This document shows positions 2,350 through 62,739 of a DNA stretch of 64,000 nt, piece by piece (the first letter of the stretch is position 1; every line of letters starts with the position of its first letter). The notes below the pieces were generated by a model. The model did not search any database, had not been told where the DNA came from, and saw only the letters and a list, made by a program, of their open reading frames with translations. This DNA comes from a virus. A program made the position numbers and the translations under genes. The DNA is taken from positions 1 through 64,000 of IMG/VR virus record IMGVR_UViG_3300047557_004034; one strand, 5' to 3'.

Positions 2350-5300
2350 TTAAGCTCTCGTATATGTTATTCTTATCGCCAAAAGTTCCGCAGTTGCTGC
2401 CAAGTTATCGGCAGCATCCGCTGGGTTTCTATTAGCTCTAAATTGTACAAAGTTACCTGCCGCAGGAGTACCTCCAATTGTAATTGCCGGTGTCGCTGCA
2501 GATATATTGACATCATCGTTTGCTTGGTTTGCATCTGTAACTTGTTGTTGTGTTCCGAAAGCTTGGTCAATCGCATCTCCATCTGCATATGCTCTAGCAG
2601 CCAATCCCCAACGAACACTGTTCGTTGATGCTGTACCTGCCACCCAATAGAATACTGCGGTGATAGTTCCACCATTGTAATCTGATGGCATCGGCATTGC
2701 CCAGTTTGCAAATGTTTGAGTAGTATCTGGAAACCCTATATAATAAAAGTTTACTGCGTTTGTTGTCGTTTGTGTTATTGTTGGTGGATTAGCTCCCGAT
2801 GTAACAGAAGGCCAACCTCCACCAGCTGTTAGTATGATTTGTCCTGTAACAGTCGCACCTGGAGCACCTTGAGCACCTTGTCCTCCTTGAGCACCTTGGG
2901 CTCCAGTTCCTGGTGCACCTTGAGCCCCCTGTGGACCTGTTGGACCTAACGCACCTTGAGCACCTTGTCCTCCTTGAGCACCTTGGGCTCCCTGAGCACC
3001 TTGGGCTCCAGTTCCTGGTGCACCTTGAGCACCTTGTCCTCCTTGAGCGCCTTGTGCTCCCTGAGCACCTGTTGCACCTTGAGCACCTTGTCCTCCTTGA
3101 GCACCTTGGGCTCCCTGAGCACCTGTTGCACCTTGAGCACCTTGTCCTCCTTGAGCGCCTTGTGCTCCCTGAGCACCTGTTGCACCTTGAGCACCTTGTC
3201 CTCCTTGAGCTCCTTGGGCTCCCTGAGCACCTGTTGCACCTTGAGCACCTTGTCCTCCTTGAGCTCCTGTTGGACCTAACGCACCTTGAGCACCTTGTCC
3301 TCCTTGAGCACCTTGGGCTCCCTGAGCACCTGTTGCACCTTGAGCACCTTGTCCTCCTTGAGCGCCTTGTGCTCCCTGAGCACCTGTTGCACCTTGAGCA
3401 CCTTGAGCACCTTGTCCTCCTTGAGCACCTTGGGCTCCCTGAGCACCTGTCGCACCTTGAGCACCTTGAGGTCCTTTAGCCCCTGTAGGTCCAATTGCTC
3501 CTTGAGCACCTTGTCCTCCTTGAGCACCTGTTGGACCTAACGCACCTTGAGCACCTTGCCCTCCTTGAGCTCCTGTTGGACCTGTAGCACCTTGAGCACC
3601 TTGCCCTCCTTGAGCTCCTTGAGCACCAGTCGCACCTTGAGCACCTTGTCCTCCTTGAGCACCTTGGGCTCCTGTTGGACCCAACGCACCTTGAGCACCT
3701 TGTCCTCCTTGAGCACCTTGAGGTCCTTTGGCTCCTGTAGGTCCAATTGCTCCTTGAGCACCTTGTCCTCCTTGAGCACCTTGGGCACCTTGGGCACCAG
3801 TCGCACCTTGAGCACCTTGTCCTCCTTGAGCACCTTGAGCTCCTGTTGGACCCAACGCACCTTGAGCACCTTGTCCTCCTTGAGCACCTTGAGGTCCTTT
3901 AGCTCCTGTGGGTCCAATTGCCCCTTGAGCACCTTGTCCTCCTTGAGCACCTTGAGCACCTGTTGGACCTAACGCGCCTTGAGCACCTTGCCCTCCCTGA
4001 GCACCTTGGGCTCCAGTCGCACCTTGAGCACCTTGTCCTCCCTGAGCTCCTGTTGGCCCTGTAGCACCTTGGGCACCTTGGCCTCCCTGAGCACCTTGAG
4101 CTCCCTGAGGACCTTTAGCACCTGTAGGTCCGATAGCACCTTGAGCACCTTGTCCTCCTTGAGCACCTTGAGCTCCTGTAGGTCCAATTGCTCCTTGAGC
4201 TCCTTGTCCTCCCTGAGCTCCTTGGGCACCTGTTGGACCTGTAGCACCTTGAGCTCCTTGTCCTCCTTGAGCACCTTGGGCTCCTGTAGGTCCAATTGCT
4301 CCTTGAGCTCCCTGAGGCCCTTTAGCACCTGTAGGTCCGATAGCACCTTGAGCACCTTGCCCTCCTTGAGCTCCTTGAGCTCCTGTTGGACCTGTAGCAC
4401 CTTGAGCACCTTGCCCTCCTTGAGCTCCTTGAGCACCTGTTGGCCCTGTAGCACCTTGGGCACCTTGGGCACCTTGGCCTCCCTGAGCACCTTGAGCTCC
4501 CTGAGGACCTTTAGCACCTGTAGGTCCGATAGCACCTTGAGCACCTTGTCCTCCTTGAGCACCTTGAGCACCTGTTGGACCTAGCGCACCTTGAGCTCCT
4601 TGTCCTCCCTGAGCTCCTTGGGCACCTGTTGGACCTGTAGCACCTTGGGCACCTTGGCCTCCCTGAGCACCTTGAGCTCCCTGAGGCCCTTTAGCTCCTG
4701 TAGGTCCGATAGCACCTTGAGCACCTTGCCCTCCTTGAGCACCTGTTGGACCTGTAGCACCTTGAGCACCTTGCCCTCCTTGAGCTCCTTGAGCACCTGT
4801 TGGACCTGTAGCACCTTGAGCACCTTGGCCTCCCTGAGCACCTTGAGCTCCCTGAGGCCCTTTAGCACCTGTTGGACCAATAGCACCCTGTGCACCTTGT
4901 CCTCCCTGAGCTCCTTGAGCTCCTGTTGGACCTGTAGCACCTTGAGCACCTTGCCCTCCTTGAGCTCCTTGAGCACCTGTTGGACCTGTCGCACCTTGAG
5001 CTCCTTGACCTCCCTGAGCACCTTGAGCTCCTGTTGGACCTGTAGCACCTTGGGCACCTTGGCCTCCCTGAGCACCTTGAGCTCCCTGAGGCCCTTTAGC
5101 ACCTGTAGGTCCGATAGCACCTTGAGCACCTTGTCCTCCTTGAGCTCCTTGAGCTCCTGTTGGCCCTGTCGCACCTTGAGCACCCTGCCCTCCTTGAGCA
5201 CCTTGAGCACCTGTTGGACCAATAGCACCCTGTGCACCTTGTCCTCCCTGAGCCCCTTGAGGTCCTTTAGCACCTGTTGGACCAATAGCACCTTGAGCAC

Positions 5301-58386: not shown

Positions 58387-60330
58387 TTAGGCGGTGGTGT
58401 TCTTCATAGAACCGAAATTCATTGTTTTCATTTTTTCTACAACATTTGTTGTAAATGTTTCCTTAAGTCTTTCACTATTGACTAAATTGTCCTCTATTTT
58501 TGCATAATCCATTCCACTGTCCCCTTTGATATTTAATTCAAAAATTGCCGGTTTAGAAGCATCGAAACTTACAACAACCTGTTTATCACTGTCAACCATT
58601 GTTGTTTTTATCTCTCTTACAATTTCAGTTACTGTGGTGTTTCCCATGTTGTTTGCTACTGGTGTTGCAATTCTTCCTACCTTTGAATCTAAGTTATCTA
58701 TTTTTGTATTAATGCTTGAGGTTGTTGTTTTTATCTCACCCATAATTTCACCCGAAGTATTCGGATTGGCGTTCGCCATTTTATCTATAGTTTTTACAGA
58801 CCCTTTTTTTAATTGACTTTCGTCGTATTCTTTCTGAACGAACTTTTGAACCGCTCTACCAATCTCGGTATTGTTATTTGCATTTTCCTGTAAAAACTTC
58901 TCTATTCCCGTTCTTAGTTCCTCATCTCCCTTACCTTGAAGTTTTTGTAGTTCTTTGATTGCGTTTTCCACTTCTTTCATACCACCCTCACTCAAACCAT
59001 CTCCTTTACCCACCGCACTCACAAAGTTTCTTATTAGGTCCATAGATTTTTCGGCACCATCTCTGAACATTTTCAAATCAACACTACTCGCCAATGCGTT
59101 TGAGCCGGCAGCTAACACTCCACGAGCACCTTCAGCTCCTTCTCTAACTGTTGGTGTAGAAACTATCCCAAGAACCACTTTGTCTTTGATTGACTTAACG
59201 TCACTTTTTACTAAAGTAAAAGCATCCAATTGAGCTCTCTGTAAGTCTTCAACTGTCTTTGGACCTTTTTTTTGTTCTTCTATTAGTTTGTCTATCTGTT
59301 GTTGTGAAAGTTTTTCTAATTGTAAAGTATCATCGCCAACTTTGATTTCATATTTACCACCATCCCCCATCTTAGCAATATTTGCCAAATATTTCTTATC
59401 CTCTTCATTTTCGAATTGTATGTCAGGTCTAATCTGTGAGAGTTTTTTATCTAATTCCGCAGCATTCAAAGACATTTTTGAGAGTTCTTGACTACTTAAA
59501 CCAGTCTGTTTTTGTAATTCTCTCATCATCAACATACCCTGAGGATTAATTTTAAACTGTCCTGCTTTTTCATCGAAGTAAGCAAATTGTTTGGACATAT
59601 TCACAATACTATTTTGTAAACCCTCTGGGTCATTCAACGATTTGTTCATCAATTGGAAGGGGTCTGTCAAATCTCCTGCTGAAACACCTAATCTTTGGAA
59701 AGCCGATGCTAATTCTATAGCTCCTTCTGGGTCTAATGCTCTCTCAGCTAAATCCATAGTAACTCTCATGTCGGTTTTTAACATGGCCGCCTGTGCCGCC
59801 ATTTTTGTAAGTCCTACAACACCATCCTGAAAATTAAACCTGTTCATAGCCGACATATCGTTAAGAACATTGCGCATTATCAACCTTGTGTTTCCTCCAA
59901 CACTTTGTATGTATTGAATTGATTCTTCTATTTTTCCACCCACTTGAGTAAACTCTACCCCTACCTCTGAAAAACTTTCTACAATAGTTTGAACTTCTTC
60001 CCCCAAAACTTGACTACTTGCAAATAATTTGGATACTTGTTCTTCTCCAGCAACAACATTTCTTCTTGTTGCTTTACCAACGGCTTCGATAGTTTCGACA
60101 GCGTCTTTAAGGTTACCACCCAATCTATCAACTGCAGGAGTGGCATCAGTAACCGCCCCCATGAGTTCTTGCATTCTCTGTCTACCAATTCCGAATTGTT
60201 TAATCAACTCTTCAGCACCACCAACCATGTTAGCAAAACCTGCTGCAATATCATCACTACCAATTTTTGCCTCATCATATAATTTTCTGAGTGCTTCGGT
60301 AAGACTTTTGACTTTATCCTCTTCGTTCAT
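58387..60330 (-). CDS. Tail tape measure protein (647 aa)
   Basis: Helical, Ala/Gly/Met/Gln-rich protein directly downstream of tube and chaperone genes. Confidence 0.7.
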   Translation of the reverse strand: MNEEDKVKSLTEALRKLYDEAKIGSDDIAAGFANMVGGAEELIKQFGIGRQRMQELMGAVTDATPAVDRLGGNLKDAVETIEAVGKATRRNVVAGEEQVSKLFASSQVLGEEVQTIVESFSEVGVEFTQVGGKIEESIQYIQSVGGNTRLIMRNVLNDMSAMNRFNFQDGVVGLTKMAAQAAMLKTDMRVTMDLAERALDPEGAIELASAFQRLGVSAGDLTDPFQLMNKSLNDPEGLQNSIVNMSKQFAYFDEKAGQFKINPQGMLMMRELQKQTGLSSQELSKMSLNAAELDKKLSQIRPDIQFENEEDKKYLANIAKMGDGGKYEIKVGDDTLQLEKLSQQQIDKLIEEQKKGPKTVEDLQRAQLDAFTLVKSDVKSIKDKVVLGIVSTPTVREGAEGARGVLAAGSNALASSVDLKMFRDGAEKSMDLIRNFVSAVGKGDGLSEGGMKEVENAIKELQKLQGKGDEELRTGIEKFLQENANNNTEIGRAVQKFVQKEYDESQLKKGSVKTIDKMANANPNTSGEIMGEIKTTTSSINTKIDNLDSKVGRIATPVANNMGNTTVTEIVREIKTTMVDSDKQVVVSFDASKPAIFELNIKGDSGMDYAKIEDNLVNSERLKETFTTNVVEKMKTMNFGSMKNTTA

Positions 60331-60356: not shown

Positions 60357-60381
60357 AGAAGGGTTATAATTTAACCCTTCT
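60357..60381 (-). terminator. Hairpin overlapping the stop of the small chaperone-associated ORF
   Basis: agaagggtta-taatt-taacccttct, 10-bp perfect stem. Confidence 0.6.
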
Positions 60382-60550
60382 GATTTTCTTGAATCCATTT
60401 ATCAAGTAGATATTTCCTTACAAAAATTGGCATTTTCTCGAAATCAGTCCAACTAACTTTCAACAACGTTGATAAGTAATAGAATTCGTCGAGTTGACCT
60501 TTCCTATAATCAGAAGAAAGGGCGAAAGAAATCAACCCCAAAACCAACAT
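60371..60550 (-). CDS. Small tail-chaperone-associated ORF (lambda gpT / T4 gp51-like); either a +1 frameshift extension of the upstream gene or a 59-aa overlapping gene
   Basis: Manual translation: (MLVLGLIS)FALSSDYRKGQLDEFYYLSTLLKVSWTDFEKMPIFVRKYLLDKWIQENQKG*. Fills the gap between chaperone and tape measure; below the ORF-track length cutoff. Confidence 0.7.
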   Translation of the reverse strand: MLVLGLISFALSSDYRKGQLDEFYYLSTLLKVSWTDFEKMPIFVRKYLLDKWIQENQKG

Positions 60551-61253
60551 TAACTGTAAGTTTTTCTCCTGATGGGGTTGTTACTATTTTAGACATATCG
60601 AGTTTTGGTTCGTTGTCATTCATAAACTTCTTAATGTATTTGGAATCTGCAATTGGTAATTGTTCTACAAACTTAGCAATTTCTCCCTTATCTTGTGTTC
60701 CGTTGACCTCAACTATTTGTCGTTGTAACTTTAATGTTACATAAGGAGCAACTCTTCCTTGGGGATAGGAGTCTATAGTTTTACTTATTTCTCTAATTTC
60801 ACCATATGTTAATGGTTTTAACTTGATAGTTGAACCAGTTTTGGGTAGAGTAGTTATAAAGTACCCATCAGATGTTGGTTCCTGACCTTTTAAAATTGAC
60901 ATTTGGTCCAAAGTCACGTTAACTTGAAATTGTTTCCCTGTCTTGGGGTCAGTAGTTGTAATCATCATGTCGGGACCAAAAGCGGTATTCCTCAAAAAGA
61001 TTAATACAGATTCAACATCACCTTCCAACATGTCTTCAACTTTTAAATCAGGTTCGTAAATTTTGTTCCTGAGAAGATTGATTGCAAGATTATCACCCCC
61101 TGCCATGATAATATTTTCATCATAAGCGGTTAGATATCCAACTTTAATTGACTTTTTCTTGTTCTTATAAAAAATCCCCTCTGATGGTAGAGGTACTACG
61201 TCGTGTGGTAAAGAAATGTTCTCTTGACCATACATTCTTGATTGTTCATCCAT
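60510..61253 (-). CDS. Tail assembly chaperone / baseplate hub assembly protein (T4 gp26-like)
   Basis: VPLPSEG.FY, LTA.DENI, L.GD...VLIFLR..AFG, C-terminal FFRP; located between tube and tape measure. Confidence 0.75.
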   Translation of the reverse strand: MDEQSRMYGQENISLPHDVVPLPSEGIFYKNKKKSIKVGYLTAYDENIIMAGGDNLAINLLRNKIYEPDLKVEDMLEGDVESVLIFLRNTAFGPDMMITTTDPKTGKQFQVNVTLDQMSILKGQEPTSDGYFITTLPKTGSTIKLKPLTYGEIREISKTIDSYPQGRVAPYVTLKLQRQIVEVNGTQDKGEIAKFVEQLPIADSKYIKKFMNDNEPKLDMSKIVTTPSGEKLTVNVGFGVDFFRPFF

Positions 61254-61258
61254 AATAT

Positions 61259-61296
61259 AAAAAATTAACCCTGAAGTTTATGTTCTTCAGGGTTAA
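61259..61296 (-). terminator. Intrinsic terminator after the tail tube gene
   Basis: ttaaccctgaag-8 nt-cttcagggttaa, 12-bp stem (61265-61296), followed by TTTTTT on the minus strand. Confidence 0.75.
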
Positions 61297-61328: not shown

Positions 61329-61817
61329 TTAGTAAACCAATACACAACGGTCCATTCTCATAGAAGCAGTAATTGTTGCTAAACCATCTTGGTTGTATGC
61401 CAATGTATTAAAATTCACATCAGTCAAGAAAGTTCCATAAAGAATCCACTTCTCAACTACAACACCTGTTGGGTCCAACATCTCGAGGTCAATATCTTTT
61501 TTGTAACCCGCAGCATAACCCATACGACCTGTTACAGACTCAGCGTGTAAACGAACCCACTCCATGAGAGCTTGCGCTGCTGAAGGACCAATCGGGTCTC
61601 TAAATGTCACGTTAAGTGCTTGCCAGTTGAATCTACCGGCTACATATGTAGATGTATTTAAAAAAGGTATTTCTGTTGCAGCGATTTGAATATGTGGTCT
61701 AGCCGTACTCTCTACAAACCATTCGTTGATACCCAAACTTGAAGGAAACCTTAGGATGAATCGATTCTGACGTTTCGGTTCGTAAGGTATCGGCATTTTC
61801 ATTAATAAATCAGCCAT
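61329..61817 (-). CDS. Tail tube protein (T4 gp19-like)
   Basis: EPKRQNRF.L, YVAGR..W..L.VTF.D, W......TG..G....YKKD..L..LDP.G.VVEKW.L.G.F motifs. Confidence 0.88.
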   Translation of the reverse strand: MADLLMKMPIPYEPKRQNRFILRFPSSLGINEWFVESTARPHIQIAATEIPFLNTSTYVAGRFNWQALNVTFRDPIGPSAAQALMEWVRLHAESVTGRMGYAAGYKKDIDLEMLDPTGVVVEKWILYGTFLTDVNFNTLAYNQDGLATITASMRMDRCVLVY

Positions 61818-61911: not shown

Positions 61912-62739
61912 TTATTTAACTTCCTTTTTAGTTCCAGATGCAGTAGAAAATGTCTTTACCTCTTTACCTGGTTTATTTTCGAAATGTTTCTTCATTACTT
62001 CTACATTCTTAGGGTCATCATCAGAAAAACCTATAAATGTTTTAGCTGGTACAAATTTATTTCCTATGTCACTTTTTATATAAGCTTTCTTATTCAATAC
62101 AGCCGCCATTCCTTTAATATAAGATACAAAATCATCCATAGCCATTACTTTTAATTCTTCAGGACTAGCAGCCCCTTTCTCTTCACCGAAACTGACAGGA
62201 TGATACTTATTTAATTCTAAATAGGATTTTATTAATTCAGAATCACTCATGTCGTCTTCATCAACAAAGGTTCTATATTTTCTTAAATTTTTTAGTAACA
62301 TATCTTTGTCGATTCCGTTGAAACCACTTACGATGTAATTATAAACCGCTTTCTTTAATGTCTCAGGTTTGTGTCCCCTTGCAGTAATAATTGCAAAAAT
62401 CGAACCGTTATTAATTGCTTCTTTGAAATCGTCGAAAGCAGGACCCGGTTCTGCTCTCATAGCGTCTATCAAAAATTGTTTGTCACCTTCTACTCTAAAG
62501 TTTCTGAAAGGTTCTTTTCCGTAGCCAGTGATGGTTTTACCTTTGTATTCGAAATTATTTTTACCTATTTCATGTCTATATTCCGCAAAGTCTTTTGTGG
62601 ACATTCCCACTTCTTCACCATCATCAGTTGATAGAATAATTTCTGTAGGCATGTGAACTATGTTGTCGTCCCAATCGAAAGCATAATACTTCATGTTAGG
62701 AACAAGTCTCTCACTGAAATTCTCTATTAAATAAATCAT
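61912..62739 (-). CDS. HAD-superfamily phosphatase-like protein (275 aa)
   Basis: Motif I YAFDWDDNI, motif II IITARGH, motif III Lys (ELKV), motif IV GFSDDD. Confidence 0.75.
   Translation of the reverse strand: MIYLIENFSERLVPNMKYYAFDWDDNIVHMPTEIILSTDDGEEVGMSTKDFAEYRHEIGKNNFEYKGKTITGYGKEPFRNFRVEGDKQFLIDAMRAEPGPAFDDFKEAINNGSIFAIITARGHKPETLKKAVYNYIVSGFNGIDKDMLLKNLRKYRTFVDEDDMSDSELIKSYLELNKYHPVSFGEEKGAASPEELKVMAMDDFVSYIKGMAAVLNKKAYIKSDIGNKFVPAKTFIGFSDDDPKNVEVMKKHFENKPGKEVKTFSTASGTKKEVK

Follow-up and report, generated by a model that had tools for sequence, protein, structure and literature searches.

The window analyzed here is a 64,000-nucleotide stretch of viral DNA (positions 1 to 64,000 of IMG/VR record IMGVR_UViG_3300047557_004034), and the features described below lie on its minus strand. 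At their center is a gene encoding a 247-residue protein (61253–60510), which comes after the tail sheath and tail tube genes and before a gene for a 647-residue protein. The tail tube gene (61329–61817, 162 residues) is directly upstream and was assigned through its match to phrog_4542 (tail tube, E = 7e-21); its product also matches PF06841, the family of T4 gp19, weakly. Between the sheath and tube genes is a gene for a 275-residue protein (61912–62739), for which no match was found in Pfam, PHROG, or NCBIfam. The 647-residue gene directly downstream (58387–60330) is presumed to encode the tape measure protein. This label, given in an earlier reading of the sequence alone (hereafter the sequence-only reading), agrees with the position and size of the gene, the two features on which the assignment is based; no Pfam, PHROG, or NCBIfam family match supports it, and BLASTP comparison with T4 gp29 gives an E-value of 0.063 only.

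Two terminator-like hairpins flank the unit containing the 247-residue gene. The first, found by sequence, lies between this gene and the tube gene (61265–61296), and Bacillus phage SP-15 has an annotated terminator at the same place, between its tube and chaperone genes. The second (60357–60381) has a 10-bp stem followed by a T-rich tail, and its loop contains the stop codon of the +1-frame extension described below, not that of the frame-0 gene. The whole record is 145,698 bases long and has a CheckV completeness of 42%; the corresponding figures for related records of 111–206 kb are 37–69%, which points to genomes of ~300 kb and a giant-phage group. Only one PF12322 gene was found per record, both here and in five further records of 111–206 kb, against the two paralogues of T4.

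The 247-residue protein matches PF12322 (T4_baseplate) over residues 32–229, with 37.0 bits against a gathering cut-off of 24.5, and phrog_150 (“baseplate hub”) with an E-value of 1.4e-13. PF12322 spans T4 gp26 (208 residues) entirely and the first 201 residues of T4 gp51 (249 residues), and these two T4 proteins are therefore paralogues. Comparison of an AlphaFold (AF2) model of the 247-residue protein (38-row alignment, pLDDT 87.9) with 48,161 PDB representative chains gave as its best three matches YqbN (3klu; Z 5.9, rmsd 3.6, 83 residues), Rbstp2171 (3fgx; Z 5.4, rmsd 4.2, 90 residues), and the HK97 tail assembly chaperone (2ob9; Z 5.3, rmsd 4.0, 90 residues), all of which cover residues ~125–225. 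The Z scores are modest, and below the level that the tool treats as safe; of greater weight is the fact that the highest-ranking matches all belong to a single functional class, the three structures being named tail assembly chaperones (TACs) (PMC9603447). A Foldseek search of the PDB with the same model returned 2ob9 at a probability of 0.60 (E = 0.65) and nothing at E ≤ 0.001. The C-terminal half of the protein is thus modelled as a tail-assembly-chaperone fold of the lambda-G/HK97 type, and the gene is, as judged from its sequence, a hub/tail assembly chaperone of the T4 gp26/gp51 family. The name tail assembly chaperone, under which the gene had been introduced in the sequence-only reading, therefore holds in substance, both through membership of PF12322 and through the solved TACs that best match the model.

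Read on the minus strand, the chaperone gene ends GGT TTT GGG GTT GAT TTC TTT CGC CCT TTC TTC TGA, with the GAT at 60533–60531 and the stop codon at 60512–60510. A second ORF of 59 residues (60550–60371), present in the ORF list, overlaps this end in the +1 frame, which is open from 60580, following a TAA at 60583–60581, to a TAA at 60373–60371. The sequence, the coordinates, and the overlapping +1 frame had all been noted previously, and were confirmed as written by reading the minus strand and the ORF list. Elsewhere in the gene the +1 frame is closed about every ten codons (21 stops in the other 224 codons), and the stop density there gives a chance of ~0.001 for an open stretch of 69 codons. 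The candidate shift cassette, UUC_UUU_CGC (60522–60530), was delimited from the sequence, from the invariance of TTT followed by CGY in the clade, and from a change of frame in the entropy of the aligned relatives. Within it, the P-site UUU corresponds to 60527–60525, the overlapping UUC onto which slippage would occur to 60526–60524, and the frame-0 A-site codon CGC to 60524–60522. A shift at UUU_C (60527–60524) would yield ...GVDFF-ALSSDYRKGQ...QENQKG, a product of 243 + 50 = 293 residues with the predicted +1 junction peptide ...GVDFFALSSDYR (junction peptide form LTVNVGFGVDFFALSSDYR); the unshifted frame-0 peptide over the same place is LTVNVGFGVDFFR. The proposed extension (60371–60523), defined by conservation in 116 loci and by alignment with gp51, consists of 50 codons (60523–60374) and the TAA, and a gap of 40 nt separates its end from the ATG of the next gene (60330). 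TTT_C is also found in frame at codon 109 of the chaperone gene (TTT CAA), and the tetranucleotide alone is thus insufficient to define the shift site.

The 247-residue protein has ~4,400 homologues of nearly constant length. From the clade to which the window belongs (clade 1), 80 viral-contig loci with 65–100% identity were fetched, comprising 48 distinct sequences, in all of which the position of the frame-0 stop is the same. The sequence TTT CGY CCT TTC TTC is invariant in this clade (48/48), the arginine codon being CGT in 29 and CGC in 19; the slip codon is fixed as TTT, while the other phenylalanine codons of the gene alternate between TTT and TTC. The codon preceding it is UUC in the window and UUU in most relatives. 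Downstream, the length of the extension is kept, with one extra codon in one subclade, and its sequence is conserved as SS[DN]YRKxQ[LI]DEFYYL...MPxFxRKYLLDKW. The +1-frame peptide between the ATG at 60550 and the shift site shows no such conservation within the clade.

Analysis of per-position variability in clade 1 locates the frame change more closely. In the upstream part of the gene to codon −18, frame-0 codon positions 1/2/3 have mean entropies of 0.39/0.32/0.98. The values are 0.15/0.14/0.86 in the overlap upstream of TTT and become 0.99/0.51/0.29 beyond the stop, where the peak falls on the third positions of the +1 frame. This switch of the entropy peak from one frame to the other implies that selection on the protein changes frame exactly at TTT_C. 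In four loci (L048, L049, L054, and L056) the +1 frame is interrupted by a TAG located 23 nt upstream of the stop codon, such that the frame opens only at −20; this late opening confines the frame change to GAC TTT TTT CGC CCT TTC TTC TGA.

A search of 1.84 billion representative proteins with a profile of the extension matched 35 small, separately called ORFs (30–109 residues) and revealed no in-frame fusion of the extension among those proteins. The contexts of the 35 small ORFs, together with two further scans, enabled the identification of two more clades. All 116 distinct loci of the three clades, in which the chaperones share 22–100% identity, have the extension in the +1 frame, and its length and sequence are conserved throughout. 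Clade 2 (45 distinct loci) has the site TTY TTT TGG CCN (UUU_U, with UGG in the A-site), and clade 3 mostly AAA TTT CTT TGG (UUU_C) or TTT TTT TGG. At the aligned site TTT_CGY occurs in 47 loci, TTT_TGG in 47, and TTT_CTT in 18, with TTT_Y present in ~112/116. Together with the constant +1 frame of the extension, this supports the +1 direction proposed from the window alone.

A DNA search of a phage collection with the 3.4-kb region gave no match, and a protein search of the same collection returned only four distant records. The site reads GAA TTC TTT CGT in Streptococcus phage vB_SagM-GXN1, GAA TTT TTT CAC in Bacillus phage SP-15, and AAC TTT CTA in the 484-kb phage LR756508. GXN1 and SP-15 are cultured phages with this layout. 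In GXN1 a +1 extension of ~95 residues to the annotated “baseplate protein” is itself unannotated (L081:~3700–4000), and in SP-15 an annotated 39-residue hypothetical protein, SP15_046 (L082:3755–3874), is the tail end of a +1 extension of SP15_045, the “baseplate hub subunit”. The A-site codons in the other clades and phages are UGG, CUU, CAC, and CUA, and an in-frame UUU followed by a pyrimidine is the only element common to all lineages.

Four clade 3 loci (L089, L155, L157, and L158) have TCT TTC TTC TGG CCT at the homologous place, ~15 nt before the stop. The TTC TTC TGG sequence would allow poor or no re-pairing of tRNA-Phe in the +1 frame, and the substitution pattern in these loci points to the TTC TTC TGG region. 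A TTT CGN is also present upstream in the four, and three of them have a terminal TTT TAA. These loci count against a shift that relies on UUU_Y in every lineage.

An alternative view takes the +1 ORF for a small gene in its own right, translated as 59 residues from the ATG at 60548–60550, as the sequence-only reading had allowed in a caveat, or by termination-reinitiation. The ATG is present in the window and in 38 of the 48 distinct clade 1 loci, and the ORF is annotated by gene callers as a small protein of its own. However, the ATG is explained as a by-product of the frame-0 sequence AAT-G, and the nearest upstream GGAG sits 15 nt away from it. In 10/48 distinct clade 1 loci the ATG is replaced by ACG or GCG, four distinct loci of this clade have no ATG, GTG, TTG, CTG, or ATH in the overlap, and over the three clades 11 of 116 distinct loci are without ATG, GTG, or TTG in the +1 overlap, including four in which this frame opens only at −20. 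Moreover, variability upstream of TTT_C follows frame 0, the +1 peptide there being the unconserved stretch described above, and T4 gp51 has a probable counterpart of the extension fused in frame. The alignment of homologues that the sequence-only reading had proposed as a check, in which TTT-CG is invariant and the ATG is not, thus favors the frameshift, and we regard an independent small gene as improbable.

One locus does have a stand-alone homologue of the extension, which counts on the side of a separate gene. On a soil or freshwater contig (L088:512–1623), a PF12322 gene ends EFFFPKG*, and 2 nt further on comes a separate 109-residue ORF, which lies in the +2 frame and has an ATG of its own. 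The part of this ORF homologous to the extension, residues ~50–100, contains a junction-like GFFSPLGY, a sequence arrangement in which the tail of a long form may have turned into a stand-alone gene. A scan of viral contigs with the L088 protein found no relatives.

Because the extension is conserved in the +1 frame, start codons for it are missing in a part of the loci, and the entropy peak switches at TTT_C, we propose that the chaperone gene very probably yields two proteins, one short and one long, through a conserved programmed +1 frameshift at UUU-C, a reading drawn from comparative sequence analysis.

Other routes to the second frame were also considered, namely slippage during transcription, shifting by −2, and a +1 shift on some codon other than UUU in the 60530–60510 interval, such as the UGA stop. 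A T6 or T7 run is found at the site in most relatives (TTT TTT C/T), which would allow −2 shifting or polymerase slippage, and the TTT TAA ending of three clade 3 loci would be a “shifty stop”. In the window, by contrast, the run is broken (TTC TTT CGC). Shifting by −2 would place the tRNA on UCU, and homopolymers do not exceed three bases, which excludes −2 re-pairing and slippage here. The sequence-only reading had proposed a +1 shift, and the TTC that precedes the slip codon here upholds this direction over −2. A site lacking the T6 or T7 run occurs in the window and in 25 other distinct loci (26 in all), and in view of these loci a +1 shift is the single mechanism that fits all relatives. 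As regards other codons, CGC, CCT, TTC, and TTC are unable to re-pair in the +1 frame, and TTT_Y is the sole element shared by all clades. We therefore judge a different type or place of frame change to be unlikely. That the open +1 frame is an untranslated product of chance or of assembly error is scarcely credible given the ~0.001 probability of such a frame and the recurrence of the layout, with coding-type substitutions, across 116 distinct loci of independent metagenomic origin as well as three database phages.

The proposed +1 frameshift at UUU-C would operate as follows. Most ribosomes would terminate at the UGA (60512–60510) and release the 247-residue protein. In a fraction of ribosomes, peptidyl-tRNA-Phe on UUU (60527–60525) would slip by +1 and re-pair on the overlapping UUC (60526–60524) as the A-site awaits CGC. 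Reading would then resume at GCC CUU UCU UCU GAU... and continue for 50 codons, giving a 293-residue product with the same first 243 residues and a short, probably helical, tail. The shift would thereby set a fixed ratio between the two products, which is presumably required for the tail tube to assemble around the tape measure protein and hub. The exact slip mechanism, its efficiency, and the binding partner of the extension are parts of the model that we infer.

Codon usage in the window would fit a slowly decoded A-site, as had been suggested from the rarity of CGC. A count over the window bears out this rarity: CGC accounts for 6 of 618 arginine codons (0.3 per 1000 codons) and is the rarest of them, AGA making up 67%, although this is phage usage and the host tRNA pool may differ. 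TTT CGC occurs in frame once across 32 long ORFs, and no tRNA genes were found within the 64-kb window. UUU_Ynn is reported to be especially prone to +1 shifting in bacteria, and is the likely shift site of Yersinia YopN-TyeA (PMC5009743).

Searches for a stimulatory RNA structure were negative: the single-sequence fold has a z score of −0.09, the alignment fold reaches −5 kcal/mol with no covarying pair, and an Rfam search found nothing relevant near the site. An 8-bp hairpin, CCUUUCUU(8 nt)AGGAAAGG, is present at 60476–60521 on the minus strand, starting right after CGC; it was rejected as a stimulator, being broken in most relatives. A GGGG run that ends 8 nt upstream of the UUU was likewise considered as a Shine-Dalgarno-like stimulator and rejected, both for this spacing and for its absence in distant relatives. 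With no conserved RNA structure, the shift may be unstimulated and of low efficiency, by analogy with influenza PA-X.

The relationship to T4 gp26 and gp51 bears on the nature of the extension. Leiman et al. (2010; PMC3004832) list both T4 proteins as hub assembly chaperones and describe gp51 as an essential protein that is not found in the particle and whose function is unknown. T4 gp26 ends ...KEFFELL* and the frame-0 product of the window ends ...VDFFRPFF*, whereas gp51 runs ~48 residues past ...DVFKLL, compared with the 50 residues that the trans-frame product of the window would add. Alignment of a profile of 116 trans-frame products with a profile of 92 gp51 sequences (hhalign E = 5.7e-6, probability 85.5) is collinear from mid-domain to both C-termini. 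The profile of the extension alone aligns to gp51 residues 212–247 weakly (P 0.002), and against T4 gp51 as a single sequence the extension was not significant by BLASTP and had an HMM score of −2.0 bits, no better than shuffled sequence, the signal being confined to the profile–profile alignments. A confident model of a gp51 homologue (pLDDT 92.2) shows helices in the additional part, at residues 208–221, 226–230, and 234–249. A structure search with the gp51-like model (VIA) gave only generic helix-loop-helix matches for residues 205–250, and a complex prediction for the extension with the tail tube protein scored 0.00, which is not evidence either way. The gp51 homologues (P0158–P0249) carry a second family, PF28602, besides PF12322, and PF28602 presumably covers the C-terminal extension of gp51.

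T4 differs from the window in that its two forms are separate paralogous genes and no frameshift is involved. The end of T4 gene 26, TTC TTT GAG, has no open +1 frame, and neither gene 26 nor gene 51 immediately precedes gene 29, which encodes the tape measure protein. The G-T frameshift has been described as conserved among long-tailed phages “except T4” (PMC5009743), and we found no paper linking PF12322/T4_baseplate or gp26/gp51 to frameshifting. On balance we lean toward a reading in which the gp26/gp51 family is the contractile-tail, T4-type counterpart of lambda G/GT, with T4 encoding the short (gp26) and long (gp51) forms as two genes and most lineages, among them this abundant but uncultured freshwater group of giant phages, SP-15, and GXN1, obtaining both forms from one gene via a +1 shift at UUU_Y.

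Frameshifting in the tail assembly chaperone is among the most conserved phage recoding events and is almost always −1, with T4 cited as the exception (PMC5009743). The present case would be one in which contractile-tail phages of a large, abundant group employ the minimal site UUU_Y for a +1 shift within the T4 gp26/gp51 family, and would tie the two poorly understood hub chaperones of T4 to the G/GT paradigm. It would also provide an annotation rule for the ~4,400 homologues, which are now called as a 247-residue protein accompanied at best by a spurious small ORF. The relatives offer a natural series of +1 sites differing in the A-site codon (CGY, UGG, CUU, CAC, and CUA) for the study of UUU_Y shifting, within which the TTC TTT variant of the window separates +1 shifting from −2 shifting and polymerase slippage.

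[quoted passage not shown] In contrast to the −1 shifts of lambda and P2 and the −2 shift of Mu, the proposed direction in the window is +1, and the shift would differ from that of lambda G/GT in relying on a single-tRNA slip at UUU_Y and not on a heptanucleotide. The window protein also has an additional N-terminal half and roughly twice the length, has an extension of only 50 residues, and shows no sequence similarity to gpG or gpT. Among other +1 systems, the prfB-type shift is not matched, as the A-site codon is CGC and not a stop, and there is no Shine-Dalgarno sequence 3 nt upstream. Listeria phage PSA shifts by +1 at CCC_UGA or CCC_U (PMC5009743), i.e. on a proline codon, in its capsid and tail shaft genes, with the help of a stop codon or a pseudoknot. 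The sequence-only reading held that shifts at this locus are usually −1 or −2 and that a +1 shift of the UUU_CG type would be unusual; the first part agrees with a review in which the G-T shift is nearly always −1. In the archaeal myovirus HSTV-2 a +1 shift has been proposed in the G/GT position (PMC5009743). As in the window, the HSTV-2 shift would give a second structural or assembly product, although the sequences are unrelated. The closest likeness in the cassette itself is to influenza PA-X, UCC_UUU_CGU (PMC5009743): both have re-pairing from UUU to UUC in the P-site (proposed for the window), a rare CGY codon in the A-site, and no conserved stimulatory structure, and they differ in the E-site codon (UUC or UUU here, UCC in PA-X) and in the bacterial translation machinery on which the phage site would act.
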